The notes under the pieces were generated by a model that saw nothing but the letters and a program-made list of their open reading frames with translations, was not told where the DNA came from and did not search any database. From an uncultured bacterium (GTDB taxonomy: Bacteria; JAGOEH01; CAYLKS01): DNA of 64,000 bases. The stretch covers positions 3,567 through 67,566 of the forward strand of contig CAYLKS010000005.1 of assembly GCA_964384205.1 (NCBI GenBank). Direction: 5' to 3'. Shown one piece after another: positions 3,405 to 45,142 of the stretch. Positions within the stretch are counted from its first letter, which is position 1. The number at the start of each line of letters is the position of its first letter. The position numbers and the translations under genes are program-made.

Positions 3405-4010
3405 TTAAACTAATACTCCTTTAGTGCTTAATATATTATCTCCCAATGTAGCATCATAAGAAACAGCATATTTAAAAGATTTTCCAAGTGATTTAAAAAC
3501 TGCTTCTATTTTATGATGATCAGAATAACCATAAAATTCTTTTATATGTAAATTCATTTTAGCTTCTTGCCCAAAAGCATAAAAAAAATCATAAAATAAA
3601 TCAACAGAGACATCCCCTATCTTAGGATATTGAAATTTTAAATCATATACTAATTTAAATCTTCCAGATAAATCTATTGCTGTTAAAACCAAACTATCAT
3701 CCATCGGAAATACAAAAAAACCTGCTCTATTTATTCCTTTTTTATCACCTAAAGCTTCATAAATTGCTCTGCCCAATACTATTGCAGTATCCTCTATTGT
3801 ATGATGATAATCAACATGTAAATCACCAGATATATCCAATTTTATATCAAAATTAGAATATCTTGCAAAAGTTTCCAGCATATGTTTCAAAAAACCGATT
3901 TCACATTTTATATCATAATTTCCTTTACCATCAAGATTTATTTTAGCATAAATATCTGTTTCTTTTGTTGTTCTATGAACAATGCCTATTCTATCTTCTC
4001 CCATATTCAA
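3405..4010 (-). CDS. hisB: imidazoleglycerol-phosphate dehydratase (monofunctional, no histidinol-phosphatase domain)
   Basis: 201 aa with RIGIVHRTTKETDI and His-rich motifs (HVDYHHTIEDTAI, YGYSDHHKIEA) characteristic of IGPD. Confidence 0.9.
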   Translation of the reverse strand: MNMGEDRIGIVHRTTKETDIYAKINLDGKGNYDIKCEIGFLKHMLETFARYSNFDIKLDISGDLHVDYHHTIEDTAIVLGRAIYEALGDKKGINRAGFFVFPMDDSLVLTAIDLSGRFKLVYDLKFQYPKIGDVSVDLFYDFFYAFGQEAKMNLHIKEFYGYSDHHKIEAVFKSLGKSFKYAVSYDATLGDNILSTKGVLV

Positions 4011-5049
4011 ATACCCCCTTTATAATGTCAACAACTTTTTGGTTAATTTCATGAGTTGAAATAGTTATTCTAAGATAATTTTTAAATAAGCAATCATAAT
4101 TAATCTTTTTAATCAAGATACTATTTTTATAAAATTCTTTCATAATAACATCAGAAAACTTGCTCGACTTTAAAAGGATAAAATTTGCATCAGAAATTAC
4201 AACACCATAATCTTTTAATTTTTGCATAAAAAATTCTTTTTCTTTATTAACATAATCTTTAATATATTTTATATGCTCAGTATCCTCTAATGAAATAATT
4301 GCCGCATTTACAGCAATGGAATTTAAAGCATAAGGCAAATTTATCTTACTTAAATTTTGAATATTATTTTTATCAGAAAAAGTAAAACCTATTCTTAATC
4401 CTGCTAAAGCATGTAATTTTGATAAAGTATAAACAACAAATACATTATTATAATCCTTTATCAAAGGAACAAAACTATCACCTGCAAAATCAATATAAGT
4501 CTCATCAATAATCACTACACTATCAGAAGCAAACTCAATAATTTTTCTAATAAACTTTTCAGATAAATAAAAACCAATTGGATTCGGAGGATTAGCAATT
4601 GCAATTATAGAAGGCTTATAATGTTTTATTGCCTCAAAAAATGCGTTCTCTGGAAAAGAAAAGTCTTGATTATATTCAATCGTAACAGTTTTCATACCAA
4701 TAATATCAGCAAAAATCTTATACATGGAATATGTCGGAAATAAAGTCAGCAAAATTTCATTTTCTTTTCCATAAGTAGCAAAAATTATCCTTAAAGAATC
4801 ATCAGCTCCATTAGAAAAAATTACATTATCTTTTGAAATACCATACTTTTTACAAACAACATCATATAACAAATCATAATCCGCATACATGGAAAGAGCA
4901 TCATAAGAACAGCTTTTCAAAAATTCCAATATTCGTGGAGAACAACCTATATTATTTTCATTTAAATCAAGCCTTATAAAATCTCTTCTTTTAATATCAG
5001 GAACAAAATAAGGAACGACTTTTTCCAAAGTTTCTCTTGGCTTTATCAT
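3991..5049 (-). CDS. hisC: histidinol-phosphate aminotransferase
   Basis: 352-aa class-II aminotransferase (YTLSKLHALAGLRIGF PLP-lysine region) within the his cluster. Confidence 0.85.
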   Translation of the reverse strand: MIKPRETLEKVVPYFVPDIKRRDFIRLDLNENNIGCSPRILEFLKSCSYDALSMYADYDLLYDVVCKKYGISKDNVIFSNGADDSLRIIFATYGKENEILLTLFPTYSMYKIFADIIGMKTVTIEYNQDFSFPENAFFEAIKHYKPSIIAIANPPNPIGFYLSEKFIRKIIEFASDSVVIIDETYIDFAGDSFVPLIKDYNNVFVVYTLSKLHALAGLRIGFTFSDKNNIQNLSKINLPYALNSIAVNAAIISLEDTEHIKYIKDYVNKEKEFFMQKLKDYGVVISDANFILLKSSKFSDVIMKEFYKNSILIKKINYDCLFKNYLRITISTHEINQKVVDIIKGVFEYGRR

Positions 5050-5900
5050 ATAATAACCTTTTTTAACTCATATTCTAATATATCTGTTGCTCCCAATTTT
5101 TTAAGTTTTGGAATTATTTTTCTAACTTCTGTTTTCAAAACAGCTGTTTTAACAGCATACCCCTGCTCTCCAAACAAAGGAGAAACAGTCGGTGCCCTCA
5201 TACATGGTAAAAAATCCACAATTGTATCTAATTTATCTTTAGGAACGTTCATTTCAAGCATAACTCGTTTCCTGGCATCTAAAATAGATTTAAAAATCAT
5301 CTCTAACTCTTCAATATGTTCTCTTTTTTCTTTATTTTCTAATGATTCTTTGTTTGCTATCAAATAAGTTGATGACTCCATTATAACATCTACAATTTCC
5401 AAATTATGCTCTCTTAAAGTGCTACCTGTGGAAGTATTATCAATAATCATATCAGCATCATCTGGAGGAAAAACCTCTGTTGCCCCAAAAGTTCTCAAAA
5501 AAACATAATTCATTTTTTTACTATTAAGATATTTTTTTGAAATATTTTCATATTCTGAAGCAACTACTATTTTTTTATTATATAATTCCTCCTCCGGCAA
5601 TTCTTTAGGTTTTGCTGAAACAATCTTTACAGGATCAAAACCAAGATCCATCAACTTTACAACATCAGCCCCTGTTTCTTCTATCCAATCAAGCCCTGTA
5701 AATCCAACATCATGAGAACCATATTCTACAAGTTTCGCAATATTTTGCGGTTTCAATATTTTAATTTCAAGCTGCATATCATTAACTATAGGCCTATAAG
5801 ACCTCGCAGATTTTTTTATATAAATTCCACTTTCAGATAATAAATCAACAACCTTTTCAAAAATCCGACCTTTAGGTACAGCCATTCTTATTTTCAACAT
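5046..5900 (-). CDS. hisG: ATP phosphoribosyltransferase (long form)
   Basis: 284 aa starting MLKIRMAVPKGRIFEKVVDLL with a HisG C-terminal regulatory domain. Overlaps hisD by 4 nt. Confidence 0.9.
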   Translation of the reverse strand: MLKIRMAVPKGRIFEKVVDLLSESGIYIKKSARSYRPIVNDMQLEIKILKPQNIAKLVEYGSHDVGFTGLDWIEETGADVVKLMDLGFDPVKIVSAKPKELPEEELYNKKIVVASEYENISKKYLNSKKMNYVFLRTFGATEVFPPDDADMIIDNTSTGSTLREHNLEIVDVIMESSTYLIANKESLENKEKREHIEELEMIFKSILDARKRVMLEMNVPKDKLDTIVDFLPCMRAPTVSPLFGEQGYAVKTAVLKTEVRKIIPKLKKLGATDILEYELKKVII

Positions 5901-5902
5901 AG

Positions 5903-7177
5903 CTAACTCCTCTTTAATAAATGTTCTAATCTAATATCTGCTGCTAATTTATGACCTTTTAAGCCTTCATTCTCAGCCAATATAGATGCTACTTTATATA
6001 AATCAACATTAAATTTATTACTATCTGTAGTTATCTGGGTGACAATCTTAACAAAATCTTTGACACTTAAACCACCTGTAAACTTCGCAACACCATTAGT
6101 AGGCAACGTATGATTTATCCCTGCTGAATAATCTCCTAAAATTTCTGCTGAATACTCTCCAATAAACAAGGAACCATAATTATACAATTTATCTTGCAAT
6201 TTGTTCGGATATCTAACATGAAGTTCCAGGTGTTCTGGTGCTTTTCTATTTGCAATATCCACAGCATCATTTAAATCATCTACAACAATAATAATACCAT
6301 TTTTTTCAATAGATATCCTTGCTATATCTGAAATCTTATATTCTTCTAAAAATTGATCGATACATTCAGATACTTCAACTGCCAATTTTTTATCATCAGT
6401 TACTAATATAGCTTCTGCTTCTTTATCATGCTCTGATTGTGCAATCATATCAGCAGCAATAAATTTAATATTAGCACTGCTATCAGCAATTATAAACACT
6501 TCAGAAGGACCAGCAACAAAATCTATTCCACAAATACCATATACCTGCTTTTTCGCATATGCAACATATTTATTACCCGGCCCCACTATTTTATTAACAC
6601 TGGGAATGCTCTGCGTACCATAAGCCATAGCACCTATTGCCTGCACACCCCCTATCTGAAATATATCTTCAATACCTAATCTATATGCCGCATATAAAAT
6701 TTCCTTGCTTATTTCTGGTGGACTGCAAACAATAATATTTTTTACACCTGCTACCTTTGCAGGAACAACCCCCATAAGCAAACTTGATACAAGAGGGAAA
6801 TTCCCCCCAGGCACATAAACACCTACACTTTCCAGCGGAATAATCCTTTGAGTAAGCTTAACACCATCTCTAACTTCTATTTCAAAATTCTTCAAATTAG
6901 CCAACTGTTCTTTTGCAAAAATAGTCAAATTCTCTACTGCATAATCTATAGCAAATTTTAAATCATTTGAAATAAATTTTTCAGCATCTACACGTTTATC
7001 ATTCGATATTTTAAAATCATCTATATCAACTTTATCAAATTTTTTTGTATAAAACCTGACAGCCGCATCACCTTGATTTTTTATATCTTCTAAAATTTGC
7101 TCAACAACTTCTAATTTTTGTAGTTCTCTAACAGTAAAAAAATCTTCATTTATATCACTATAAGAAATAATTTTCAT
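5903..7177 (-). CDS. hisD: histidinol dehydrogenase
   Basis: 424 aa with HisD signatures (AGPSEV, SEHD, GDY..G.NHTLPT). Confidence 0.92.
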
Positions 7178-8418
7178 TTGAATCTCCGCCTATAAAGTTC
7201 TTTTAATACATCATCAAAAGAGATTCTCTCTTTTACCATTAAAACTGTTGTAAAATATATTAAATCAGCAACTTCCCATACTTTTTCTTCATAGTTCTGA
7301 GCTTCTACAACCTCATAGGCTTCCTCCATTAATTTTTTTCGGACCTTTCTATCATCCAATGAAGCAGTGTATGAACCAGGTACAGGATTTCTAAATCTAT
7401 CCTCAATAATTTCGTATAAATCTAACAATGAAAAATCTTTATAACCAAAACATGAATAATTACCAGTATGACATGCAGGACCATGAGGTTTAACTTTTAC
7501 AAGCAAAGCATCATAATCACAATCTGCTCTAAGTGTTAACACATCTTGAATATTTCCAGATTCTTCCCCCTTCATCCATAATTTCTGCCTGGATCTGGAA
7601 TAAAACCAGGTTTTCTTAGTTTCAAACATTTTCCTTATAGATTCTCTACTACTATATGCCAAGGTCAAAACTCGTCCAGATTCATCTTGTGTAATTGTGG
7701 GAATCAATCCATTTTTAAATTGTAAAGAATTTATAAAAGCATCTTCTAATGTTATTAATCCCTTATATAATGCCATTCCCAGTTGAACATCTATATTCAA
7801 TTTTGCAAATTCTCGAATTTCATCAATAGTAGTTACACCGCCGGCATATACTACCTTTCTCTTTGTAATCTTTCTAATACTTTTTGCAGTATCAATATCA
7901 GCTCCTTTAAGCATTCCTTCTTTGATAACATTAGTAAATAAAAACTCAGTTGCAAAATCTTCTAATTGCTCAATTGCTTCAAAAGTATTAATTCCTGTGT
8001 CATGTTTCCAGCCAGAAGTAACAATTTTCCCATCTTTTGAATCAATTGCAATTATAATTTTATCAATCCCAATAGAATCCCTCAATTCTGCTAAAAAATC
8101 AAAATTTATTTTATCATTTTCAAAAGCTTTAGAGCCAATAATTATCTTCTTTGCTCCTAAAGCTAAATATTTTTTGGCAGTTTCTATATCTCTAATGCCA
8201 CCTCCTACTCTACAATCGGCAATCTTCAAAATCTGGCGGATCAAATCAAAATTATTACCATTTCCAAATGCTGCATTTAAATCAATTACAGCTATTTCAC
8301 CAAAAAAATTAAATTTTTTAGCAAGAGCTAAAACATTGGATTCTTCCAATATTTTTTCTTTCCCCTGTTCTAATTGAACAGCCTTACCATCTAATAAATC
8401 TATTGAACTAATCACCAT
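7174..8418 (-). CDS. hisA/hisIE: fused ProFAR isomerase HisA / phosphoribosyl-AMP cyclohydrolase HisI / phosphoribosyl-ATP pyrophosphatase HisE
   Basis: The N-terminal ~230 aa form a HisA TIM barrel ([11 protein letters not shown]...VGGGIRD). The middle is HisI ([19 protein letters not shown]...[14 protein letters not shown]). The C-terminus is HisE ([14 protein letters not shown]...[12 protein letters not shown]). Confidence 0.85.
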
Positions 8419-9167
8419 CTTACAATAACTCCATTTTTATTTAAATATTCCTTAATCTCTCTTATACTCAATTCTTTAAAATGTAATACAGATGCTAATA
8501 ATACAGCATCTGCTTTGCCCTCCTTTATGCCTTGCAAGATTTGTTCTAATGTCCCACCTCCACCAGAAGCAATCACTGGCACATTAACCGATTCTGATAT
8601 TATTGAAGTAAGTTCAAGATCGTATCCTTCTTTTGTACCATCCTGGTCAATAGAATTCAACAAAATTTCACCTGCTCCAAGTTCTGTTGCTCTTTTTGCC
8701 CATTCTATTGCATCAATATTAGTGTTTTCCCTGCCACCATAAGCATAGGCATACCATCTATCACCATGCTTTTTGGCATCTATTGATAAAACTATACATT
8801 GTGAACCAAAAATTTTCGCTCCCTCAGAAATTAAATCAGGATTTTTTAAAGCAGATGTGCACATAGAAACTTTATCTGCTCCTGCATTAAGTACCATTCT
8901 TATATCATCTACTGTCCTTATGCCCCCTCCAACTGTCAATGGTATAAAAACCTGAGAAGAAACCTTTTCAACAACATCTAACAAAATATTACGACTTTTA
9001 TATGACGCTCCTATATCCAAAAAAACAAGTTCATCTGCTCCCTCATCATTATAATATTTAGCTAATTCTTCCGGAGAACCAGCATCTTTTATATCCTTAA
9101 ATTTTAAGCCTTTAACAACTCTACCATTATCAATATCAAGACATGGTATTATTCTTTTAGCTAACAT
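8412..9167 (-). CDS. hisF: imidazole glycerol phosphate synthase cyclase subunit
   Basis: 251 aa, [20 protein letters not shown]...GADKVS...ASGGGG, a canonical HisF. Confidence 0.93.
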
Positions 9168-9760
9168 AACTTACTCCAATTTAATAAAAATTGTAATCCT
9201 TTTTTGCCACTTTTTTCAGGATGAAACTGCACAGCCACTATATTTCCTTTCTGGATGGCAGACGTATATGTTATATAATAATCTGTGATTGCTATTTCCA
9301 CCTCATCGTCAATATTATCAACATAATAACCATGCACAAAATAAAAAAAAGAATTGTTATCTATATTATAAAATAATTCATTTGTTGACTTTATACTAAT
9401 ACTATTCCAACCAATTTGCGGAATCTTACCTTTTTGAAATCTTTTTACATTTCCCCTTAAAAAACCAAAACCATCAACTCCCAAATTCTCTTCACTTTTC
9501 TCATACAACAACTGTAAGCCAAGACAAATACCTAAAAAAGGCATATCATTATTCAACCACTCAATAATCAAATCCCATAATTTAACACTTTGCAACCGAT
9601 CAACTGCACTTCCAAATGCTCCAACACCAGGCAACACCAGCTTATCAATATCTTTAAAATCCTCCTCTCCTGATATTATCTTATTTTCTAATGATAAATA
9701 ATCAAAAGCCTTCTTTACAGACAAAAGATTTCCTGCTCCATAATTTATTATCCCTATCAT
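9161..9760 (-). CDS. hisH: imidazole glycerol phosphate synthase glutamine amidotransferase subunit
   Basis: 199-aa class-I GATase (GICLGLQLL catalytic Cys, HPEKS). It is the first gene of the his operon. Confidence 0.9.
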
Positions 9761-10580: not shown

Positions 10581-12863
10581 ATGAAAATAAAAATATTACC
10601 ATTTTTTATAATTTCCTTTATAACCATATTAATTTATGCATCAGAACCTTCTGGAAAAATAAAAGGAATTGTAAAAGATATAGAAAATGATGAGCCTTTA
10701 ATAGGTGTTAATGTATTAATAGTCGGTACATCAAAAGGAACAATAACAGATACATCGGGCAAATTCTCTATTAACAATATTCCTGTTGGGAGTTATACCT
10801 TAGAATTTAGATATATTGGATATAAAACCTTAAGAATAACAGATATAATAGTAAAACCAGCAAGAACAACCTACATAACAGTAAAAATGCAAACTAACCC
10901 TCTACAATTAGAAGAAGTAAAAGTTACACCTCAATATTTCCAAAAAAATGATGAACAGCCAACAAGTAATATTACATTTTCATTTGAAGAAGTCAGGAGA
11001 GCACCAGGAGCTGCTGGAGACATCAGTAGAATAGTAATGAGTCTACCAAGTGTTGCAAAAATAAATGATCAATCTAATGGGCTCATTGTAAGAGGTGGAA
11101 ATCCAATCGAAAATGGATTTTATATTGATGATATAGAAGTACCAAATATTAATCATTTTCCAATGCAAGGAGTAACAAATGGTGCAATAAGTATCATAAA
11201 TGTAGATTTTATTCAAAATGTAGAATTTTACAGTGGTGGATTCTCATCTTTATACGGAAATAAACTATCCTCTATCATGAATATACAATTTAGAGAAGGA
11301 AGTAGAGAAAAAATAACAGGCCAACTTGATCTAAATTTTTCAGGTTTGGGCGGAATTATAGAAGGACCATTATTTAACAAAAAAGGGGCTTTTTTATTTT
11401 CAGCAAAAAGAAGCTATCTTGATTTCCTTATAAAAACAATAGACATGGGTACATCTGTATCTCCTCAATATGAAGATTATCAGGGAAAACTGACAATTGA
11501 TTTAAATCCTCAAAATAAACTTACTATATTAGGAATATTTGCAAAAGACTATAATAATCCTGATAGAAAAGCTGCTTTAGAAAATGATATGATCTATTAT
11601 GGAAAACAAAAAATCTCTCAGGGCGCTATAGGTACAAACTTAAAAACTCTATGGAATAAAAAAATATATTCAAAATTCATTTTCTCAACTAATTTACAAA
11701 AATTTAAAGAAACTGCCAGAGAAACAAATACGGATCAGCTAATCAGAACTAATACTTCTTCTGAAAATCATTATAATTTTAAAAATATTAACCATATAAA
11801 GTTTAATAATAAAAATTCTATAGACTTAGGAATTGAATATAAATATACTCAAAATAATTACAAAATGCATTATGGTTCTTTTACAAATTATCTCGGAGAT
11901 ACAACCAAAGCTTATGATTTTATTAAAACTATAAATTCCACACAAACTTCATTATTTTTCAACTATATCTCAAAATATATAAAAAGACTTACAGCAACTA
12001 TTGGATTTCGTGCTGATTATTATGGAATTAATGAAAAAATAAAAATTGACCATAGATTATCATTTACTTATCAAATAAACAATACTATATCTATAAATGC
12101 TTCCTATGGAATTTATCACCAAAATCTACCATTAATCTTTACTACTGACAAAAATTTACAAATTCCTAAAGCAATCCACTATATTATAGGATTTGAAAAA
12201 CTATTAACAGAAAATACAAAATTAACTCTTGAATTTTATAGAAAAAATTATAAACATTTTCCGATGAGTTCCGACCAACCAGATTTATTTTTGATAGATG
12301 AAATATTTTATGGATATGGTTTCTTTTTTAACCATGAAAACCTAAATTCTTCAGGAAAAGCTTATGCTCAGGGAACAGAACTAACAATTCAAAAAAAGAT
12401 TGTTAAAAATTTTTACGGACTAATAGGAGCTTCTTATTTCAGAGCAAAATATAAAAATTTAAATGATAAATGGATTAATAGAACATTTGATAATAAAGTT
12501 ATATTCAGCATACAGGGTGGTTATAAACCAAATAATAAATGGGAATTCAGCGCAAGATGGATTTATGCTGGTGGAGCACCCTATACACCTTTAAATATAG
12601 AGGCTTCTCGAAAATTCAAGCATTATATTATAGATGAAACAAGAGTAAATCAGGCAAGATATCCAGTTTATCATTCATTAAATATTAGATTTGATAGGAG
12701 ATTTTATTTTAAAAAAAGCAATTTAATATTTTATTTGAGTATCTGGAATGCCTATAATCATAAAAATATTGCTGCATACTTCTGGAATATTAAAAAGAAT
12801 AAAAAAGATGAAATCTATCAATGGCCATTGCTACCCATTATAGGTCTGGAATATGAATTCTAA
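10581..12863 (+). CDS. outer-membrane protein with a carboxypeptidase-regulatory-like domain and a TonB-dependent-receptor plug/barrel (SusC/TBDR-like)
   Basis: 760 aa with a signal peptide, a CarbopepD_reg-like N-domain (GIVKDIENDEPLIGVNVLIVGTSKGTITDTSGKFSINNIPVGSYTLEFRYIGY), a plug-like region and a long beta-rich C-terminus ending ...GLEYEF. It is preceded by a duplicated Shine-Dalgarno sequence. Confidence 0.7.
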   Translation: MKIKILPFFIISFITILIYASEPSGKIKGIVKDIENDEPLIGVNVLIVGTSKGTITDTSGKFSINNIPVGSYTLEFRYIGYKTLRITDIIVKPARTTYITVKMQTNPLQLEEVKVTPQYFQKNDEQPTSNITFSFEEVRRAPGAAGDISRIVMSLPSVAKINDQSNGLIVRGGNPIENGFYIDDIEVPNINHFPMQGVTNGAISIINVDFIQNVEFYSGGFSSLYGNKLSSIMNIQFREGSREKITGQLDLNFSGLGGIIEGPLFNKKGAFLFSAKRSYLDFLIKTIDMGTSVSPQYEDYQGKLTIDLNPQNKLTILGIFAKDYNNPDRKAALENDMIYYGKQKISQGAIGTNLKTLWNKKIYSKFIFSTNLQKFKETARETNTDQLIRTNTSSENHYNFKNINHIKFNNKNSIDLGIEYKYTQNNYKMHYGSFTNYLGDTTKAYDFIKTINSTQTSLFFNYISKYIKRLTATIGFRADYYGINEKIKIDHRLSFTYQINNTISINASYGIYHQNLPLIFTTDKNLQIPKAIHYIIGFEKLLTENTKLTLEFYRKNYKHFPMSSDQPDLFLIDEIFYGYGFFFNHENLNSSGKAYAQGTELTIQKKIVKNFYGLIGASYFRAKYKNLNDKWINRTFDNKVIFSIQGGYKPNNKWEFSARWIYAGGAPYTPLNIEASRKFKHYIIDETRVNQARYPVYHSLNIRFDRRFYFKKSNLIFYLSIWNAYNHKNIAAYFWNIKKNKKDEIYQWPLLPIIGLEYEF

Positions 12864-12892: not shown

Positions 12893-14182
12893 TTAATTTA
12901 AATTGAGATTTTCGATATAACTTTCTGTATAAATTATATTATTTTCTTTTATAACATGAATAAATTTTTCTAATTTCTTTGATGAACTATTTTGAAAATT
13001 TTGATCCATTGCTAGGGAATAAGCTTCTGTTCCCGGCAGTGGAATAAATTTATTTATCTGTGCAATTTTAGGTATATATTTTTTATTCTTTTTTATAAAT
13101 AGCAATGTCTCTTCAAAATCTTTTTCTGTCTCACCCGGAAAATCATAAATCAAACTAATCTCAGCAAAAAGATTATTCTTATAAAGAGCTTGTAAAAATC
13201 TTGATGCAATTTCTGTATTATACCTTTTATTCATCAATTTTAAAACCTTATCACTTCCACTTTCAAGTCCAATAAAAAGCCCAACACATCCAGATTTCTT
13301 CATCATTTGAAAAATTTCATCATCCATATCATTCCTAATATAAATCTGAGCATCCCAATATAACTCCACCTTATTTTTTATCATCAAATCCAACAAATTA
13401 TAAAGCTTATTCAAATTACCATTTATCAAAGAATCAAAAAAAGTAATCCACTTTATCTTATATACTTTTTTTAAATATAACAAATACTCTACAAAATCTA
13501 ATTCGTTATAAGTCTTAAATTTATCAAATAATTTTGTTTCTGCACAAAAAGCACACCTATTAATACAACCACGCGAAAACATTACAGGTAATGCCTTCTT
13601 TCTTTTATAATTTTTAAGATCAAAATATTTAAACTCCGGAAATCCTACCTCCGAAAGCTTTACCACTGGTTCATGATAAATCTTATTATTATTTCTCAAC
13701 TTGTATATTGCTTTTTCACCTTCACCAACAATAATTTTATCTGCAAAATAATAAAAACTTCGAAGGTCCTTCCCCTCCCATACTCTATATTGAATTTGAG
13801 GGCCTCCAATTATTATCTTAATATCCTCTTCTTTTTTTCGTAAAACATCTGCTATTTTAAAAATGAATTTTTCATTCAATTTAAAAACACTAAAGCCAAT
13901 ATATTTTATATTTTCTCTTTCAATTATATCAAAAATTTCCTCAAATTTATAATTAAATTCTGAAACAACATATTGAAAAAAAACTTCATATTCTTCTTTT
14001 GTAAGAACAGTCCATCTTTTCTGCCATTTTTTCTCTATTAAATTATAAATCTCAGCATTCAAATCTTTAATTACAGGAAAAAAATTATTTCTCTCTAAAT
14101 GAGCGGAAATATATGCTATACCTAAAGGAGGAAGATTCGGCCATATAGGCGGCATCACAATCAATAAAATCTTTTCTTTCAT
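12893..14182 (-). CDS. B12-binding domain radical SAM protein (class B rSAM)
   Basis: 429 aa with an N-terminal cobalamin-binding-like domain and the CxxxCxxC motif FSRGCINRCAFCAE. Confidence 0.8.
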   Translation of the reverse strand: MKEKILLIVMPPIWPNLPPLGIAYISAHLERNNFFPVIKDLNAEIYNLIEKKWQKRWTVLTKEEYEVFFQYVVSEFNYKFEEIFDIIERENIKYIGFSVFKLNEKFIFKIADVLRKKEEDIKIIIGGPQIQYRVWEGKDLRSFYYFADKIIVGEGEKAIYKLRNNNKIYHEPVVKLSEVGFPEFKYFDLKNYKRKKALPVMFSRGCINRCAFCAETKLFDKFKTYNELDFVEYLLYLKKVYKIKWITFFDSLINGNLNKLYNLLDLMIKNKVELYWDAQIYIRNDMDDEIFQMMKKSGCVGLFIGLESGSDKVLKLMNKRYNTEIASRFLQALYKNNLFAEISLIYDFPGETEKDFEETLLFIKKNKKYIPKIAQINKFIPLPGTEAYSLAMDQNFQNSSSKKLEKFIHVIKENNIIYTESYIENLNLN

Positions 14183-14185
14183 ATA

Positions 14186-15928
14186 CTAAAAATTAATTCC
14201 AACATTAATATTAAGAACCCAATAATCATAACCGTAATAATGTTGCTTGCCTAACATAAAATCAGCTACCATAAAACTACTTTTTTTCATTATGTTAACG
14301 CCATACGAATATTCAGTAGCAGTATTAATTATTTGAAATTCAGTATCCACAAATCTAAAATATCTTGTATTACGAATATTATAATAAGCTAATACATTAT
14401 AACCAAATATATTAGCATTTGAATTTATTTCAAAAAAATTTCTTTTTCTCAACTTATTATTATAAAAATAAAATTTATCATCATAATTAGCTAAGTAGTA
14501 GCCATTATCACGCCTATTGAAATTATTTCTAATAGATATACTAAAACTATCTGAAAATTTAACATTAAAACCTAACACATTATCAAAAATTAATATTGCT
14601 GTATTTTGTTCTGGAACATATTTATAATAAATATAATCCGAAGCTAAATAAATACTATCTATTAACGTCACATTATCATTTAGTTTATACTGAAAATCAG
14701 ATGAAAGTGAATATCTGTTATTAAAATAATTATTTATAGAAGCATATTTGGATATATAAACAAATTTTTTCCTTAAGTTTTTAACTTCAATTATTGAACT
14801 AAATTTTTCAAAACTAAGTGATAACTTTAAAAATAAAAAATCTCTTAACTGATCATTATCATTAAAATTAAGTTCACTCAAATAATGAAAGTAATCCTTT
14901 TCAAGATGTTTTGCAAACTCAACCTTATAAAAATTGTATTCCCAGAATAAAGCCAGTTTTAAATTATAATTTTTATATATAAAATTATCAAAATCAAAAA
15001 AATATTTAAAATTACTCCTTTGAAATGATTCTTCAACAAAAAACTTTAAATTTCTATTTAATGCGTATTCTATTTTAAAATTATGAAAAAAAATCTTTTG
15101 AATTCTCTTATTTATTGTAGCACTATGATTTTTATAAAAATCATTAGAAACAGAATCCAGTACAATTTTACCATTTAAAGATAAACCATAAAATTCATTT
15201 AACGTAAATTCTGTGAAAAAATTATAACTAAATTCATCTTTATTCTGAGTAAAATCTTGTTTTGGGATTTGTCTTATAGCCTTTGAAAAATTAAAATAAA
15301 CTTTTGTTGCCAAATTTTTCAATGAAAAAAAATAAAAATTTTCACTGGATACTTCTTTATAAGAAGTTTGTTCCTGGCCATTTATTATAATATTGTTATG
15401 CGATTCCAAATTATTATAATTTAAATAAACATTTAATGAATCATATAATCCATCATTATTAATTAAACTATCCAGATTTTGATGTATTACCTTATATTTT
15501 TCATCTTTATAACCAAATCTATTTTTAAAAGAAAGATATTTAAAAAAAGAATGCTCAATTATAGTAGAATAATTATAAGATGTTGATTTTATTTTAGAAT
15601 AAAATGTTTTATCTAAATTATTTGAATATTGGAAATCTAACGAAATGCCATCTAATATTTTTCTATTAAAAATATAATCTGTTATCTTTTGATATTTTTT
15701 TAAAGAATAATTATAAATCTGATTAGAATTAAATTTAAAAAAACCAAAATCAATTTTATTAATTAAACTTTCATTATCTCGCAATTTTGAATAATTAGAA
15801 ATTGCTTTATTTTGAGCTATGGAAAAAGAGAAAATAAATATAAGCAAAAAAAAACTATTTATATAATTTTTTTCTAAAAATCGTATTAATTTTAATATCT
15901 TTGCTATATGGTAAAAATATATAATCAT
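14186..15928 (-). CDS. hypothetical N/Y/F/K-rich protein, possible outer-membrane beta-barrel (true start uncertain)
   Basis: 580 aa. A hydrophobic signal-like segment ([19 protein letters not shown]) appears only after about 25 aa, so the real start is probably downstream of 15928 (for example the TTG encoding FLLIF). Alternating aromatic and polar residues and a C-terminal ...GINF are typical of an OM barrel. Nothing else is recognisable. Confidence 0.4.
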   Translation of the reverse strand: MIIYFYHIAKILKLIRFLEKNYINSFFLLIFIFSFSIAQNKAISNYSKLRDNESLINKIDFGFFKFNSNQIYNYSLKKYQKITDYIFNRKILDGISLDFQYSNNLDKTFYSKIKSTSYNYSTIIEHSFFKYLSFKNRFGYKDEKYKVIHQNLDSLINNDGLYDSLNVYLNYNNLESHNNIIINGQEQTSYKEVSSENFYFFSLKNLATKVYFNFSKAIRQIPKQDFTQNKDEFSYNFFTEFTLNEFYGLSLNGKIVLDSVSNDFYKNHSATINKRIQKIFFHNFKIEYALNRNLKFFVEESFQRSNFKYFFDFDNFIYKNYNLKLALFWEYNFYKVEFAKHLEKDYFHYLSELNFNDNDQLRDFLFLKLSLSFEKFSSIIEVKNLRKKFVYISKYASINNYFNNRYSLSSDFQYKLNDNVTLIDSIYLASDYIYYKYVPEQNTAILIFDNVLGFNVKFSDSFSISIRNNFNRRDNGYYLANYDDKFYFYNNKLRKRNFFEINSNANIFGYNVLAYYNIRNTRYFRFVDTEFQIINTATEYSYGVNIMKKSSFMVADFMLGKQHYYGYDYWVLNINVGINF

Positions 15929-17090
15929 TGGGATTGGCTATTTTAGTTGGCATAAAAAATATATTAAACATTTGCTTTACTTTAAAATTATGCCATCTTT
16001 TATTTTTAAAATCAAAAATTTCTATTGTATCATTTAGAGAAAAATGATTTTTCACTTCTAATAAAATCCATGTTTTTTCATATATACGCCTTACAATAGC
16101 AATAGTCTGATATTGCCTATTATATTTAATAGCAGAATAATTTTGCATTTTAGAATGGGGTGTTTTGTTAAAAAATGCTGTGGTAAAATCTCTATTATCC
16201 GCACTCTTTAATTCCTTTTTCAAATCATCCAATTTATCAAAAAATAAATTTTTATCTTCATAAACAATGTCAATAGCTTTTCTATAAACAGAAACTACTG
16301 TTGAAATATAATTTAAAGATTTCATTCTACCTTCAATTTTAATAGAATCAATATTTGCATCAATAATATCCGGCAAAAAATCAATTAAACACAAATCTTT
16401 AGAATTTAAAACATAAGACCCATATTCATCCTCTTGTATATCAAATTTCTCACCGGGTCTTGATTCTTCAATTAATCTAAAATTCCATCTACATGGATGT
16501 GTACATTCTCCTAAATTAGCAGAACGATTGGTTAAAACAGCACTCAATAAACATCTGCCAGAATAGGAAATACACATTGCGCCATGTATGAAAATCTCTA
16601 ATTCCGCATTTGTATTATCTCTAATTTCCTTTATTTCATCAAAGGAAAGTTCTCTTGCAAGGTTGAATCTTTTAACATTAAATTGTTTCAAAAAATTTAT
16701 TGAATAAAAATTTGTAGTATTAGCCTGAGTACTCAAATGTATTGGAATATCTGGCGCTAATTCATTAGCTAAAGACAATACTCCTAAATCGGAAATTATA
16801 ATACCATCCGGTTTAATAGATTGTAAAAACTTCAAAAATTCTTTTATTTCATCTAAATGATAAACATGGGCAAAAATATTTAAAGTCACATAAGCTTTTT
16901 TGCTGTTTTCATGAATATATTCTATAGCTTTTATAAGTTCTTCATCAGAAAAATTATTACTAAATGATCTAAGGCTAAATTTCTTTCCCCCTAAATAAAC
17001 AGCATCTGCACCTGCTTCTATAGCCACTTTCATTTTATCAAAATCACCTGCAGGTGCAAGAAGTTCTATTTTCTTATTTTGCATTATCAT
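15855..17090 (-). CDS. peptidase U32 family protein (Fe-S, RlhA/UbiU/YhbU-like)
   Basis: 411 aa, N-terminus [35 protein letters not shown], with a four-Cys cluster CISYSGRC...ECTHPC typical of U32 proteins. Confidence 0.8.
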
Positions 17091-17841
17091 CCTTATTTTT
17101 ATCTTTTGACATAAAAGGTGTTAGTATATCAATCGGAATAGGAAAAATTGTAGTAGAATTATTTTCTGCAGCAATTTCTCTTAATGTCTGCAAATATCTT
17201 AATTGAAGTGCCACAGGATAACTTTGTATGATTTTTGAAGCTTCCATTAGTTTATTAGCCGCTTGATATTCTCCTTCTGCATTTATTATTTTTGCTCTTC
17301 TTTCTCTTTCTGCTTCTGCCTGCTTTGCCATTGCTCTTTGCATCTCCTGTGGAAGATCTATATGTTTTATTTCAACCAAAGATACTTTTACTCCCCAAGG
17401 GTCAGATTGTTTATCAATTACAGCTTGTAATTCTTTATTAACTTTATCTTGATTAGCCAGAATATCATCTAATTCAAATTTACCGAGAACCGAACGCAAA
17501 CTTGTCTGAGACAACTGACTGGTAGCGTATAAATAATCTTCAACCTCAATCACAGCTTTTTCTGGATCCATAACTCTAAAATAAACAACCGCATTTACTT
17601 TAATAGAAATATTATCTTTTGTAATAATATCCTGCGGTGGAACATCCAACGCAACTGTTCTCAAACTCACTTTCACCATTTTATCAATAAAGGGAAATAA
17701 AATTATAAGACCTGGCCCTTTTATACCAATCAATCTTCCCAATCTAAAAATAACTCCTCTCTCATATTCTCGTAAAATCCTAAAAATATTCAACAAGAAA
17801 AAAATTATAAAAATTACAACTAAATATGAAAAATAAAGCAT
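17074..17841 (-). CDS. SPFH/band-7 (stomatin-like) membrane protein
   Basis: 255 aa with an N-terminal TM segment followed by an SPFH domain ([45 protein letters not shown]). It is paired with NfeD. Confidence 0.85.
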
Positions 17842-17842
17842 A

Positions 17843-19147
17843 TTAGCCCTCCTTTTTCCTCACTATTAATGTCATCCCATTAATATTAATAATTTCTACC
17901 ATATCTCCTGCCTCATATATATCATTATTCTCTGAAATTGCATTCCAATATTCACCGTGGATATATACACGCCCGCCCTTATCTGTAACCCGATCAACTA
18001 CTTTAGCAAATTCGCCTATCATACCCTCTTTACCACATTTCTTTTTATTTTTTTGCGCTTTAATCGCTAAATACACTAACAGCAAAAAAAATAATGCTGT
18101 AATTCCCACTCCAATTATTATCACAGGTAAAGATATTTTAATAAATGATAACTCAGTGTCTATCAAAAAAAAAGAACCCAAAAACATAGAAATAATCCCT
18201 CCTATAAATAGTAAACCATGGGTATTTACCTTAACTTCAAGTATAAATAATAAAACAGCAAATAATATTAATATTATTCCTGCTATATTTATTGGTAAAG
18301 TATGGAAAGAATATAATGCAATAACAAGAGAAATCACCCCTACAATACCGGGCAAAATAGAGCCAGGATTGGATAATTCAAATATCAAACCATACATGCC
18401 CAATAACATAAAAATATATGCTATATTAGGATCGCTTATCAATTTTAAAAAAGCAAGCCACCAATCAATCTCAAAAAACACCTTCTCTGGATTTAATAAT
18501 TCCAATTTACAAATCTTACCATTAACTTCTAATTCTCTATTATTCAAAGCTATTATAATAGAATCCAAATCATCTGTTATTTGATCAATAACATTTAAAG
18601 ACAAAGCCTCTTTTTCAGTTAATGTTTCCGATTTTCTGACAGCACTAACAAGCCATTTTTCATTTCTATTCCTTTTCTCAGCAATATTTTTCATAAAAGC
18701 AATAGCATCATTTAATATTTTCTCAGACATAACATTACTTGAATCTAATTTCATATTATTACCAATACTTACAGGATGAGCAGCTCCAAGATGAGTTCCT
18801 TCACACATAACTGCCCAATTCGAGGCCGCAGTTATAAACACACCAGCAGAGGCCGCTCTTGCTCCAGCAGGTGTTATATACACACTTATAGGTATATCAG
18901 AACTTAAAAATAGCTGCACTATTCTCCTGGTAGATTCTAATAAACCACCTGGAGTATCAAGTTTAATTATCAATAAATCTATTTTATCAATTTTACATTT
19001 ATTAATTGCTTTTTCAAAATATCTATAGGTAATTGGACCTATTGGACCATCCCAATTTGCTATCATAACTTTTGAAGAATAAGACAAAGACAATAATAGG
19101 TGCAAAAAAAACAATATTCTACTTAATACTCTCATATATTTCTTCAA
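17843..19147 (-). CDS. NfeD-family membrane-bound ClpP-class serine protease
   Basis: 434 aa with an N-terminal ClpP-like domain ([18 protein letters not shown]...ASAGVFI), multiple TM segments and a C-terminal OB-fold region. This is the classical NfeD-stomatin pairing. Confidence 0.8.
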
Positions 19148-20624
19148 ATCTTTTATGATGTTTCTTAAAATAATTCAAAAGCTCAGGATCAAAGCTTGAT
19201 GGCTTTAACCTATTATCGCCTTTAGTTATAATTTCATAAGCATGTTCATGTGAAAAAGGAGGTTTATAAACTCTTGGACTCCTCAAAGCATCATATACAT
19301 CAACTATTTTTACTATCCTGGCAGCAATATCTATCTGCTCTCCTTTTAACCCATTAGGATAACCCGTTCCATCCCATGACTCATGATGCTGTAAAGCAAT
19401 TATTCTTGCCATTTCAAAATCTTTATTATCACCTAAAATTTTAGCACCATAAATAGTATGTTTCTTCATCTCTTCCCATTCTTCATGTGATAATTTACCT
19501 GGTTTTTTTAAAATATCCGGATGAACATGTAATTTCCCAACATCGTGTAATTGTGCTAACAACCTAATTCTATAACAAAATAATTCATCCATGCCCAAAG
19601 CTTTTGCTAATTCATAAGAATATTCATTCACCCTGATAATATGCTCGCCAGTATCATCATCCCATACTTCAGCAGCACGAGATAAAGCATAAATACTATA
19701 TTTATACATCTCCCGAATTTTTTCCAATGATTTAAATATAGATAGATAATAACCTAAATGAATTGTAGAACTTTTAATTATATAACTCTCTAAATCTGGA
19801 ACAAAATTACTAAAATTGCATGCTAAAATACTTAAATCGCCCACAGAATAATATAAAAAATTATCCATTTTATTATCTAAAATTTCTCTAACCTCAGGAT
19901 GGATCTCAATAGAATTAAATTCTTCTTTATTTTTTACCACCAATAATTTTTTTTGTTCATATTTAATTAAATATGGTATATCCAATTTTATATATTCTAT
20001 AACTTCCTTTTTTTCTACTTCAAACCTATAACAAAAAGCAGTAGATTCATCCCTCCTTTGATAAAAAACAAATAAATATTCTGGCATTGTTATTTTATCT
20101 TGATACTCTTTCTTAATAAGATCAATTATAACATTATCAATAGTATAGGGGAAACAATATAAACTAATTTTATTTAATTTACTTAATATCTCCTCTGAAA
20201 AATTATTAATTATCTCTAAATCATATAAAGCTATCTTAGATTTTTCTCTTTCTTTCTTTAAGTTTATCTGATTCTCAACCCTTGTCATTAACTCTGCAAT
20301 ATCCAATGGCTTATTTAAGAATTCATCAGCTCCACTTTTTAATGCTTCTAATTTTAAAACACTATCTTTTAATCCAGTCATCAAAATTATAGGAACGTCT
20401 GTAAAAATTTTATTCTCTCTTATACGTCTGCATGCTTCAATACCAGAAATTTCAGGCATATTTATATCCATTAATATTAAATCTGGTTTATATTCATTTA
20501 ATTTATTCAATGCATCAATAGCATCTGTTGTTGCAAATAAATTATAGCCTAATTCCAAAAATATATTTTTTATTAAATCTAAAATATACTCATCATCATC
20601 AACAACTAAAATTTTACTTTTCAT
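19119..20624 (-). CDS. response regulator with a C-terminal HD-GYP domain (c-di-GMP phosphodiesterase, RpfG-like)
   Basis: 501 aa with an N-terminal receiver (ILVVDDDEYILDLIKNIF...LILMDINMPEISGIEACRRIR) and a C-terminal HD domain with HHESWDGTGYP. Confidence 0.85.
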   Translation of the reverse strand: MKSKILVVDDDEYILDLIKNIFLELGYNLFATTDAIDALNKLNEYKPDLILMDINMPEISGIEACRRIRENKIFTDVPIILMTGLKDSVLKLEALKSGADEFLNKPLDIAELMTRVENQINLKKEREKSKIALYDLEIINNFSEEILSKLNKISLYCFPYTIDNVIIDLIKKEYQDKITMPEYLFVFYQRRDESTAFCYRFEVEKKEVIEYIKLDIPYLIKYEQKKLLVVKNKEEFNSIEIHPEVREILDNKMDNFLYYSVGDLSILACNFSNFVPDLESYIIKSSTIHLGYYLSIFKSLEKIREMYKYSIYALSRAAEVWDDDTGEHIIRVNEYSYELAKALGMDELFCYRIRLLAQLHDVGKLHVHPDILKKPGKLSHEEWEEMKKHTIYGAKILGDNKDFEMARIIALQHHESWDGTGYPNGLKGEQIDIAARIVKIVDVYDALRSPRVYKPPFSHEHAYEIITKGDNRLKPSSFDPELLNYFKKHHKRFEEIYESIK

Positions 20625-20773
20625 TACTTTCTCCCGGTGGTACTTTTAAAAAAATTAACCAAAAAAATATATTTTGTCAATAAAAATTTAAAATTATTAT
20701 TTTTTAGATACATAATGATATTTTTAAAAAAATTGACAATAAAACTTTATAATATTATATTTAATATTAAAAA

Positions 20774-26983: not shown

Positions 26984-27067
26984 GCCGAAGTGGTGGAACT
27001 GGTAGACACGCTATCTTGAGGGGGTAGTAGGCGACTGCCTGTGCGGGTTCGAGTCCCGCCTTCGGCA
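26984..27067 (+). tRNA. tRNA-Leu (anticodon GAG)
   Basis: 84-nt cloverleaf with acceptor GCCGAAG/CUUCGGC, a D-arm, anticodon stem CTATC/GGTAG with loop TTGAGGG, a long variable arm and a GGTTCGAGTCC T-loop. CCA is not encoded. Confidence 0.85.
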
Positions 27068-28612: not shown

Positions 28613-29905
28613 CTACCCGGGAAATAATTTTCTCTTCAATCTATCGAATCGATCCCATTTTATAAATCTTGTCTCTCTAACTGTTCTGTATAAAATAAAA
28701 ATCCCATAAATTAAAAATATAATATTTGAAAACCACATTGCAAGCCATGGTGGAACCACCCCTTTATCACCAAGCTCTTCACCTACAAGTAAACTCCCCC
28801 ACGATAGTACAAAAAATATCATACTAATTATAATAGAGGGTCCCACTCCCCCTCTCTTCGATCTTACTCCCAATGGAACTCCAAGTAAAACAAATATAAT
28901 ACAAGCAAATGCAATCGCAAATTTTTTATGAATTTCTACTTTATATTGATTAATTTGATATTCCAAATTTTTTTTAATGTTCACCTCATTTTTCAATCTA
29001 TAATATGTTGTCATAGTAATAGGTTTTCTTCCCATCAACAAAATTGATAAATCATTTCTAATATATTTCTTACACCTATTTTTAGTATTTTTAATTCTCA
29101 TTTTTAAAGTATCAATATAACTATTCATCATTGATATGTTCATCTCCCTCTGCCCTCGATTAAAAACAAAATCCCTGGTACTATCAGAACTCAAATTATA
29201 CTTATATACAAGTTCATTAAACTTTATAGAAGAATATCCCCCGTCATTTTTTTTATTAAATTTATAAATTTCACCGTAGTTTAATTTTAATATCATAATA
29301 TCCTTATTAGCATCATAAGCAATTATACCATCTTTGGAAGTTATAATATCAGGAGTTCTACCCTTGCTATAATCATAAATGACAACATTCTTCATATAAT
29401 TTTTTTTTCTATCAAGATTATCACAAAATAACACGAAACTATCACCAATTTTATTAAATTTGCCTTCTTCCAAAGCTATAGTGGGAGTAGAAGCCTTAAT
29501 TCTAAATTCTAAATTTTTTAAATAATAATTCGCATCTGGCAATATATTATTATTAAAATAAAAAATTATTCCTGTATTTATCAGTCCAAATAATAAAGAA
29601 GGAATTAAAAGAGAATAAAGGCTTATTCCACTTGCTTTTATAGCCATTATTTCATTGTCTTCAGTCAATTTTCCATAAGTCATAATTGTAGCAAGCAATA
29701 CACTCATAGGAATAGAAAGAGCAATAATATGCGCAAGACTTAAATATACCATCTTAAATATTACAGAATATTCAACCCCTTTTTTCAAAATCATATCTGT
29801 AATTAAAATAAATTCATTAACAACCATAATACCAGTTATTAAAAAAATAGAAAAAAAGTATGGCGGTAATAATTCCTTAAAAATATATCTATATAAAATT
29901 TTCAT
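28613..29905 (-). CDS. LptF/LptG family lipopolysaccharide export permease
   Basis: 430 aa, YjgP/YjgQ family: N-terminal TM segments, a periplasmic beta-jellyroll and C-terminal TM segments. Confidence 0.8.
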   Translation of the reverse strand: MKILYRYIFKELLPPYFFSIFLITGIMVVNEFILITDMILKKGVEYSVIFKMVYLSLAHIIALSIPMSVLLATIMTYGKLTEDNEIMAIKASGISLYSLLIPSLLFGLINTGIIFYFNNNILPDANYYLKNLEFRIKASTPTIALEEGKFNKIGDSFVLFCDNLDRKKNYMKNVVIYDYSKGRTPDIITSKDGIIAYDANKDIMILKLNYGEIYKFNKKNDGGYSSIKFNELVYKYNLSSDSTRDFVFNRGQREMNISMMNSYIDTLKMRIKNTKNRCKKYIRNDLSILLMGRKPITMTTYYRLKNEVNIKKNLEYQINQYKVEIHKKFAIAFACIIFVLLGVPLGVRSKRGGVGPSIIISMIFFVLSWGSLLVGEELGDKGVVPPWLAMWFSNIIFLIYGIFILYRTVRETRFIKWDRFDRLKRKLFPG

Positions 29906-31107
29906 TCAATAATAGAAGTAAAATCACCATCTTTTACAATGGTTTTAATTTTCATATTTTTATTAATATTATTCTTTGAATTAATTATTTTATCATCCAA
30001 AGATAAAGTAATAGAATACCCTCTATCCAAAATATTTTTAGGATTCAATGCTTCTAAATGTCTTTTTAATGAAATAACATGTTGTTTTTTTAATTCTACT
30101 TTATTTTCAAAATTATTTTTCAATCGAGAAGTTAAACTATCAATATACTGTATTTTTTGGTTCAATAAATCAATCATACGTTCATAATTTAGTATACGCT
30201 TTGCTCTTTTATACCTTTGTTTATAATTATTATAAATAGAAATCATAGTTACAACTAATTTTTGCTTCATTAATATAACTTTATTTTCTAATTCCTTAAT
30301 ATCCTTAACAGCAATCTCAGCTGCAGCAGATGGAGTAGCTGCTCGTATATCAGCAACAAAATCAGCAATAGTAAAATCTATTTCATGACCTACTGCAGAA
30401 ATAATAGGTATTTTCGATTCAAAAATAGCCCTTGCAACAATTTCTTCATTGAAAGCCCATAAATCCTCCAAAGAGCCACCGCCTCTACCAACAATTAAGA
30501 CATCAACTTTCCCATATTCATTAAATTCTTTAATTGCTTGAGCAATTTCAGCTGCAGCAGTATCTCCCTGTACCCTCACTGGTCTTAAAATTATATCAAC
30601 TGAAGGATAACGTCTTCTCAATACTTTTATTATATCTCTTATTGCTGCTCCGGTTCTTGAAGTAACAACTCCAATAATCTCAGGAAATGCCGGTATAGGT
30701 TTTTTAAATTTCTCATCAAATAATCCTTCTTGTTCCAATTTCTTCTTCAATTGCTCAAAAGCAAGCTGAAGCTCTCCTAAACCCGCAGGCATCAAAGAGG
30801 AAATTATAATCTGATAATTACCTCCTTTTTCATATACTGCTAACTTGCCAAATACATTAACTTTTAACCCATTCTCTAAATTAAATTTTATATTCTGAGC
30901 AGTAGATCTCCATATAACAGCTTGAATCTGACTCTTATCATCTTTTAGCGTAAGATATATATGACCTGAAGAATGCCTCTTATAATTTGAAATCTCTCCT
31001 ACAACATATACAACTGGAAATGAATCTTCAAGTAAATTTTTAATCTGTAATGTCAATTCATATATTGTTAATGGTTTCTCCATTAGTGAATTTTCTATAT
31101 TATTCAT
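29902..31107 (-). CDS. xseA: exodeoxyribonuclease VII large subunit
   Basis: 401 aa with an OB-fold (VVGEISNYKRHSSGHIYLTLKD) plus the catalytic core (GRGGGS). Confidence 0.9.
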   Translation of the reverse strand: MNNIENSLMEKPLTIYELTLQIKNLLEDSFPVVYVVGEISNYKRHSSGHIYLTLKDDKSQIQAVIWRSTAQNIKFNLENGLKVNVFGKLAVYEKGGNYQIIISSLMPAGLGELQLAFEQLKKKLEQEGLFDEKFKKPIPAFPEIIGVVTSRTGAAIRDIIKVLRRRYPSVDIILRPVRVQGDTAAAEIAQAIKEFNEYGKVDVLIVGRGGGSLEDLWAFNEEIVARAIFESKIPIISAVGHEIDFTIADFVADIRAATPSAAAEIAVKDIKELENKVILMKQKLVVTMISIYNNYKQRYKRAKRILNYERMIDLLNQKIQYIDSLTSRLKNNFENKVELKKQHVISLKRHLEALNPKNILDRGYSITLSLDDKIINSKNNINKNMKIKTIVKDGDFTSIIE

Positions 31108-34433: not shown

Positions 34434-34590
34434 AAAAACCCCGCTTTGCCGTGTAGTTTGGAGATTTGAACCTTGCGGTTCAATTAGAGACAATCCAATG
34501 AAGCAGACAAGCCACTTCAAAAGATTGTCTCAAAATTTTGAGTGTTGGCTCAAATTTTCCCGACTATCACGAGCAAAGCAGGGTTTATTT
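34434..34590 (-). ncRNA. candidate structured small RNA (a 15-bp closing helix enclosing three hairpins); strand and class uncertain; syntenic with 6S RNA downstream of zapA
   Basis: CCCCGCTTTGCCGTG (34439-34453) pairs with CACGAGCAAAGCAGGG (34568-34583). Internal hairpins are GAGACAATC/GATTGTCTC, TTGAACC-ttgc-GGTTCAA and CTCAAA/TTTGAG. On the minus strand the helix is followed by UUUUUU. The region lies in the 228-nt gap between the zapA stop and the rny start. Confidence 0.35.
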
Positions 34591-45101: not shown

Positions 45102-45142
45102 CGTAAAATTTTGCATAATTATATTAAATAATATTAATAAAG

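Follow-up and report, generated by a model that had tools for sequence, protein, structure and literature searches.

The question raised by positions 12893-20624 of the 64,000-nucleotide stretch analyzed here (the window) is whether six consecutive genes that abut or overlap on the minus strand serve one pathway or simply lie side by side. In the order of their transcription, they encode a response regulator with an HD-GYP domain, an NfeD protein, an SPFH protein, a U32 protein, an orphan protein and a radical S-adenosylmethionine (rSAM) enzyme with a B12-binding domain. An earlier note on this DNA had proposed a pathway controlled by cyclic di-GMP (c-di-GMP) and scaffolded at the membrane, in which an Fe-S hydroxylase, the U32 protein, and the B12-rSAM enzyme would act together. 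This proposal is not borne out, since homologues of the genes are scattered and no linkage other than that of NfeD with SPFH recurs. SPFH, NfeD, the orphan or a close relative of the rSAM enzyme were found at none of the 80 loci of the closest U32 relatives (within 10 kb on either side). U32, SPFH, NfeD, orphan, TonB receptor, TetR and MFS genes were likewise absent from all 77 loci of the rSAM family (three long contigs and 74 further metagenome loci), and the two sets of loci do not overlap. The comparison of U32 and rSAM neighborhoods that the earlier note had itself suggested thus returned no conserved co-localization, the very result it had named as speaking against its idea. We therefore consider it likely that the string is a group of independent modules sitting together in a compact genome, probably co-transcribed, and not one pathway. 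These modules would be an orphan REC-HD-GYP regulator, an NfeD1b-stomatin pair, a TrhP-type U32 protein, a rare barrel and a solo class-B rSAM enzyme. Their domain identities and tight junctions were observed directly, while each biochemical activity proposed below is read from sequence.

Rechecking the open reading frames (ORFs) gave six minus-strand genes with the same coordinates and junctions as reported before, and again left no intergenic space for a promoter among them. From the regulator to the rSAM ORF, the junctions measure -29, +1, -17, -74 and +3 nt. In the public annotation of the source contig (ENA ERZ27227322, k141_2250383, 95 kb), NfeD begins 12 nt downstream of the ORF start given here. 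The orphan begins there at a TTG 81 nt downstream, which shortens its product to 553 aa and leaves 7 nt between the U32 stop and the orphan start in place of the 74-nt overlap. Two of the overlaps thus hinge on the start codon chosen, and every version leaves the string without intergenic space. The sole non-coding space for a promoter of the string is a divergent intergenic region of 149 nt (20625-20773) shared with an MFS gene. On its minus strand we noted a candidate promoter, as consensus matches only, with TTGACA at 20680-20675 and a GGGAG Shine-Dalgarno sequence at 20635-20631 ahead of the regulator ATG. Scans of this AT-rich window were of little help: the sigma-70 scan was uninformative (79 sites for 65±9 expected), the Bacteroidota -33/-7 promoter motif was not enriched (7 matches for 5.8 expected), and no credible internal terminator came out of a scan that is itself uninformative in such DNA. 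The six genes are probably co-transcribed from the region upstream of the regulator gene. Such packing is the default of this genome and nothing special to the string, because 26 of the 39 same-strand junctions of the window measure 10 nt or less and other runs are equally tight, namely the his operon (3405-9760) and 28613-34356. Overlaps account for 19 of these junctions, gaps have a median of 1 nt, coding sequence makes up about 93% of the window, and the chance of five tight junctions in a row at the window rate is about 0.13. The earlier note had warned that overlaps are common throughout this genome and make co-transcription weak evidence, and these counts agree with it.

The one linkage of the string that is conserved, between the NfeD and SPFH genes, was already known, as the earlier note had recognized, and an NfeD1b-SPFH1b operon has been documented (Hinderhofer et al. 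2009, PMC2636767). The NfeD ORF (17843-19147, minus strand, 434 aa, alternative ATG start at 19135) matches the Pfam families NfeD1b_N, NfeD_membrane and NfeD, all over cutoff. In the PDB it matches the PH1510 protease (99 bits) and the C-terminal domain of STOPP, the "stomatin operon partner". It is accordingly classed as an NfeD1b protein, predicted to be a membrane-bound ClpP-class serine protease with a C-terminal stomatin-binding OB domain. The SPFH ORF (17074-17841, minus strand, 255 aa) gives 141 bits with Pfam Band_7 and, in the PDB, 245 bits with stomatin and 219 bits with PH1511, and is assigned to the stomatin-type SPFH1b proteins, the partners of NfeD1b. A strong AAGGAGGG Shine-Dalgarno sequence precedes its ATG. 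By analogy with PH1510 and PH1511, stomatin would form a membrane cage on which NfeD1b docks via its OB domain, trimming stomatin with its ClpP-like protease.

Both genes are co-directional, 1 nt apart in the window, and the pair is kept in relatives (L085, L086, L087 and L174, from BMS3Abin05, Ignavibacteria and Calditrichota contigs), where the flanks differ from those of the window. Neither an upstream HD-GYP regulator nor a downstream U32 gene is present at these four loci. A DUF2905 or an aldehyde dehydrogenase gene lies upstream there. The genes downstream encode either an unannotated protein of about 491 aa together with GH38, or the proteins of an AmmeMemoRadiSam cluster. In the BMS3Abin05/Calditrichota loci L085 (10206-11684) and L174 (10243-11718), the protein of about 491 aa, which matches no Pfam family, follows NfeD-SPFH and is itself followed by a GH38 alpha-mannosidase, and a small DUF2905 gene stands ahead of NfeD. 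We considered whether this protein in L085 (492 aa) could be a divergent homologue of the orphan and rejected the idea, as the two are unrelated. In the Ignavibacteria loci L086 (8001-12929) and L087 (4870-9782), NfeD-SPFH is followed by a 410-aa rSAM protein, a fusion of Memo and AMMECR1 (AmmeMemoRadiSam type) and a spermine-synthase-like protein. This rSAM protein is of the AmmeMemoRadiSam type as well and was rejected as a relative of the rSAM enzyme of the window.

The U32 ORF (15855-17090, minus strand, 411 aa) comes next. It matches Pfam Peptidase_U32 (PF01136, 312 bits) and U32_C (PF16325, 38 bits) and carries the motif E165-x7-C-x6-C-x15-C-x3-C, in which EIFIHGAMC-x6-C begins at residue 165. 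The identification of a four-cysteine U32 protein in the earlier note therefore holds, and in the set of TrhP, UbiU, UbiV and RlhA its closest member is TrhP. The alignment with E. coli TrhP is full-length (residues 7-402, 234 bits, 35% identity), against 174 bits with UbiU and 172 bits with RlhA, both over the catalytic core only, and 40 bits with UbiV; no relative was found in the PDB. TrhP (YegQ of E. coli) and TrhP1 (YrrO of B. subtilis) are prephenate-dependent hydroxylases of tRNA U34, with a U32 catalytic domain and a characteristic C-terminal domain, and E162, C170 and C177 are essential in TrhP (Sakai et al. 2019, PMC6599085). The equivalent residues are all present in the window protein with identical spacing. 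They do not discriminate TrhP from RlhA, because RlhA has them too. The protein scores below the NCBIfam equivalog cutoff for TrhP (340 vs 534 bits), a shortfall to be expected for a distant phylum since the model was built on enterobacterial sequences.

Other identities were tried and rejected. For UbiU and UbiV, the NCBIfam scores are far too low (194 vs 440 and 40 vs 275 bits, respectively), no second U32 gene accompanies this one, and SCP2/UbiT is missing from its neighbors. For RlhA, the protein is too short (411 aa vs about 650 aa) and its alignment is confined to RlhA residues 1-270. Altogether, we regard it as a TrhP-type [4Fe-4S] protein, probably a housekeeping tRNA U34 hydroxylase independent of O2, which would convert the uridine at tRNA position 34 to 5-hydroxyuridine. 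No description of a linkage between stomatin and U32 proteins was found in the literature searched.

The last gene of the string, the rSAM ORF (12893-14182, minus strand, 429 aa), combines a Pfam B12-binding domain (PF02310, 34 bits for a cutoff of 32) with Radical_SAM (PF04055, 67 bits), and its translation contains the cluster motif GCINRCAFC (CxxxCxxC), in agreement with its earlier identification as a B12-rSAM protein. It is assigned to the class-B (cobalamin-binding) rSAM enzymes, in a family without characterized member. The named NCBIfam equivalogs (PhpK, TIGR04072, BchE, HpnJ, HpnR, BzaD and others) gave at best 127/600, 87/360, 73/481 and 64/578 bits, and the nearest PDB relatives are remote (26-40 bits). 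Presumably it is a methyltransferase. A reading as a defense-system component was rejected, as PADLOC returned a weak generic rSAM match to the candidate PDC-M51A (81 bits) and generic REC and HD matches.

The partners conserved around this family are other proteins than those of the string. In 53 of the 77 loci, a small rSAM protein of about 285 aa similar to PA0069 and Rv2578c is encoded directly downstream on the same strand, a pairing of which we found no description in the literature searched. A subset shows a longer operon (L101 6143-13308, and also L097, L098, L109, L133, L136 and L113) with genes for a PAS-HD-GYP protein, a TtcA-like PP-loop ATPase, the B12-rSAM protein, the small rSAM protein, a DUF362 and 4Fe-4S ferredoxin protein, a PNP_UDP_1 nucleosidase and an SPL-like rSAM protein. 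This set of partners suggests nucleoside or nucleic-acid chemistry. A PNP_UDP_1 gene was also seen directly downstream of the B12-rSAM homologue in two of the first three loci examined (L002 11298-12032 and L004 11317-12012). Such a neighbor would fit the removal of 5'-deoxyadenosine or S-adenosylhomocysteine as by-products, or nucleoside chemistry. Neither the small rSAM partner nor the other partners of this operon have a match anywhere in the window, where a convergent gene follows the rSAM gene. The closest homologues of the window enzyme are also solo, and their neighbors share nothing with the window.

The convergent gene (10581-12863) encodes a TonB-dependent receptor and lies 30 nt from a TetR gene. 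The suggestion in the earlier note that this receptor imports cobalamin or the substrate for the rSAM enzyme found no support. In the whole window no cobalamin riboswitch reaches the Rfam gathering score, NCBIfam gives the receptor no BtuB-family match and just an N-terminal match to SusC/RagA, and receptor homologues are near none of the 77 rSAM loci.

Between the U32 and rSAM genes lies the orphan ORF (14186-15928, minus strand, 580 aa), for which Shine-Dalgarno inspection did not settle the start codon; translation likely begins with the TTG at 15847, for a product of 553 aa. The searches with hidden Markov models proposed earlier for this ORF and the rSAM protein were run, and the 580-aa product matched no Pfam or NCBIfam family, while the rSAM protein came out as class B and reached no named equivalog. 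A word-indexed search for homologues of the orphan returned only itself. An exhaustive HMMER search of 1.84 billion representative proteins found three homologues, of 581 aa (31% identity), 578 aa (24% identity) and a 244-aa fragment, which makes a family of four members including that of the window; at E≤0.1 the homologues have no Pfam match. These homologues belong to genomes with about 45% GC, which shows that we are dealing with a real family and no artifact of AT-rich DNA.

In the alignment of the family, the N-termini are short and resemble signal sequences, and the C-terminal half contains strongly conserved motifs. Three of the four members have an aromatic residue in the last position or adjacent to it. 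The AlphaFold model, built on a thin alignment, has an overall predicted local distance difference test score (pLDDT) of 52, with values mostly of 80-94 over residues 360-580. It shows a helix at the N-terminus and then about 23 long antiparallel strands, a number that is uncertain given the low confidence of the N-terminal half. The features of an outer-membrane barrel (signal peptide, all-beta strands, C-terminal aromatic beta-signal and barrel fold) were scored as present. The orphan thus probably belongs to a rare family of large outer-membrane beta-barrels, as the earlier note had guessed for a beta-barrel, and might take some substrate as a separate module. We rejected the possibility of a TonB-dependent transporter, for which neither a Plug or TonB_dep_Rec match (Pfam, E≤0.01) nor a TonB box was found. 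Both full-length homologues are encoded directly downstream of a LemA-TPM-TPM cluster on the same strand (L088 382-4154, L089 376-4148 and L090 7843-11737), and the window contains no LemA or TPM gene. A 681-aa RlhA-like U32 protein is encoded about 2 kb from the cluster and barrel in L090 (3932-5977, minus strand), probably by coincidence. As evidence of a link between U32 proteins and the barrel it was rejected, since it is another paralogue than that of the window, is encoded on the opposite strand and is separated from the barrel by ABC-transporter genes.

The regulator that heads the string (19119-20624, minus strand, 501 aa) was correctly recognized in the earlier note as an HD-GYP response regulator. 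It has a receiver (REC) domain at residues 5-117 (Pfam Response_reg, 102 bits) and an HD-GYP domain at about 298-495 (HD_5, 96 bits), with intact HD (LHDVGKL) and HHESWDGTGYP motifs in the translation, and its closest PDB match is the c-di-GMP phosphodiesterase PmGH (4MCW, 152 bits). The 180 or so residues between both domains (about 125-295) match no Pfam or NCBIfam domain and may form an uncharacterized sensor or linker domain. From these features, the regulator would be expected to hydrolyze c-di-GMP once its receiver has been phosphorylated by some kinase.

As to the organism, the closest NfeD homologues (48-51% identical) come from Ignavibacteria, Melioribacteraceae, Calditrichota, KSB1 and Bacteroidota, and the CarboxypepD_reg-TonB architecture of the neighboring receptor (Pfam) is typical of this group. 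For the U32 and rSAM proteins, the closest homologues reach only 39-50% identity and are scattered over many phyla. Judged by these affinities, the window belongs to a deep-branching lineage of the FCB group with a compact genome of 28% GC, for which no close sequenced relative was found. The window has a GC content of 28.2%, and the orphan gene, at 19.7%, is the lowest in its neighborhood. A second stretch of low GC (21-23%), within 54-60 kb, coincides with a 1324-aa ORF at 53960-57934. We also noted a 6S RNA (Rfam RF00013, 62 bits) at 34434-34587 on the minus strand, where 790 nt separate the ORFs at 34356 and 35147, and three tRNA genes (26984-27067, 45031-45102 and 59709-59782).

How firmly can a common function be set aside? 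Several observations weigh against our reading of independent modules. Outside coding sequence, there is no space at the junctions for internal promoters. The genes are hence probably co-expressed, which could reflect a functional link. With best homologues just 39-51% identical, the synteny comparisons reach across long evolutionary distances only. In each of the three genomes for which its surroundings are known, the orphan barrel gene comes after a module associated with the inner membrane. Finally, an HD-GYP gene is present in the flanks of 9 of the 77 rSAM loci and of 1 of the 80 U32 loci taken as control (Fisher p=0.008), and in two lineages it stands directly upstream of the rSAM gene and co-directional with it. 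In L097, L101, L102 and L109, whose rSAM proteins are 58-71% identical to one another, the first gene of the rSAM operon encodes a PAS-HD-GYP protein. In L099 (3329-10143), genes for a REC-HD-GYP protein, a 1110-aa GAF-PAS-HisKA-HATPase-REC-GGDEF hybrid kinase, the B12-rSAM protein and the small rSAM protein are all co-directional, which places a complete c-di-GMP signaling pair directly upstream of the rSAM pair. This recurrence is the only part of the earlier hypothesis with comparative support, and that support is weak. One could assume on this basis a functional connection between the first gene of the string, for the regulator, and the last, for the rSAM enzyme, in which a nucleotide second messenger controls the rSAM modification and the four genes between them are passengers. 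However, the enrichment may just mirror genomes rich in HD-GYP proteins, because the U32 control loci come from different taxa. Moreover, immediate adjacency is restricted to about two independent lineages, and an HD-GYP gene is lacking from most of the loci that have the full operon, L133, L136 and L113 among them. In the window, the four intervening genes are unrelated and the usual partner of the rSAM enzyme is absent. We thus hold this connection to be rather unlikely. A broader proposal would be that the string is a true functional operon of a poorly sampled lineage. In it, a phosphorylation-controlled HD-GYP phosphodiesterase would tune the B12-rSAM modification, and the barrel would join inner-membrane scaffolds (stomatin and NfeD here, LemA-TPM-TPM elsewhere) as a new partner in the outer membrane. 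We judge this unlikely.

The barrel could alternatively work with the stomatin/NfeD scaffold alone, as its homologues might with LemA-TPM-TPM, and the U32 and rSAM proteins would then be bystanders. The position of both full-length homologues directly after LemA-TPM-TPM on the same strand is consistent with this, as is that of the window barrel, two genes downstream of NfeD-SPFH, both upstream modules being membrane-anchored. Yet the argument involves three genomes in all, LemA/TPM and SPFH/NfeD are unrelated families, the U32 gene stands between barrel and stomatin in the window, and the NfeD-SPFH loci of relatives have no barrel homologue. This makes such an envelope partnership very unlikely. 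Even more improbable, and largely refuted already, is the single pathway in which all six genes would carry out a c-di-GMP-controlled, stomatin-scaffolded anaerobic modification of an envelope or RNA substrate, with the TonB receptor supplying cobalamin or the substrate. The tight or overlapping junctions behind one upstream intergenic region would suit it, and the U32 and rSAM proteins are both Fe-S enzymes independent of O2. Nevertheless, no pair but NfeD-SPFH recurs in the 80 U32, 77 rSAM, 4 NfeD and 3 orphan loci, the U32 protein is of the TrhP type, a stand-alone tRNA enzyme in E. coli, and the rSAM family keeps company with other proteins. The absence of a cobalamin riboswitch from the window, of a BtuB match for the receptor and of the receptor from the surroundings of rSAM homologues also tells against it. 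One would also wonder whether the string could be a chimeric join in a metagenome contig, given that the source is a metagenome assembly and that the GC content of the orphan gene is so far below that of the window. We find this hardly conceivable, as reading frames are unbroken across every junction and low GC is also seen in the region of the large ORF at 54-60 kb. In addition, a second source (JGI/IMG) lists 99.6% identical regulator and orphan proteins, the longest contig being 59,280 bp for each and perhaps one and the same. The reading of independent modules is therefore the one that we retain.

What this means is modest. Overlapping co-directional genes in a streamlined genome are no evidence of a shared pathway, and the finding, an ordinary one, matters little as it stands. 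Two by-products may merit attention independently of the window: a very rare family of predicted outer-membrane barrels, found twice after LemA-TPM-TPM, and a widespread, uncharacterized B12-rSAM family with a conserved operon in other phyla. If, on the other hand, the string were a functional operon after all, the adjacency of HD-GYP and B12-rSAM genes in other phyla would be a first hint of second-messenger control of an rSAM pathway.

A parallel can be drawn between each module and a known system. Like HD-GYP regulators of the RpfG/PmGH type, the regulator combines a receiver at its N-terminus with an HD-GYP domain at its C-terminus, in which the HD and GYP motifs are intact. It differs from them by its linker of about 180 residues without recognized domain and by the lack of an adjacent cognate kinase gene, and its substrate could be c-di-GMP or cyclic GMP-AMP (cGAMP). 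The rSAM enzyme shares an N-terminal B12-binding domain and a CxxxCxxC core with the PhpK-family P-methyltransferases, the TIGR04072 lipid-biosynthesis B12-rSAM proteins and BchE, to which its best profile matches also point, whereas its scores are far under the cutoff of all the named equivalogs. The orphan has no Pfam or NCBIfam similarity to the 22-strand TonB-dependent transporters or to the porins CymA and OmpG, and lacks a Plug domain and a TonB box. Compared with TrhP, the U32 protein has a lower equivalog score, and its gene is adjacent neither to a second U32 gene, as yrrN, nor to a methyltransferase gene. The NfeD-SPFH pair closely resembles the PH1510/PH1511 operon of Pyrococcus horikoshii. 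There too, NfeD precedes stomatin on the same strand, and the PH1510 architecture of a ClpP-class protease, a membrane domain and a C-terminal OB domain is the same in the NfeD protein of the window, so that only the flanking genes differ, as they do in every lineage examined.

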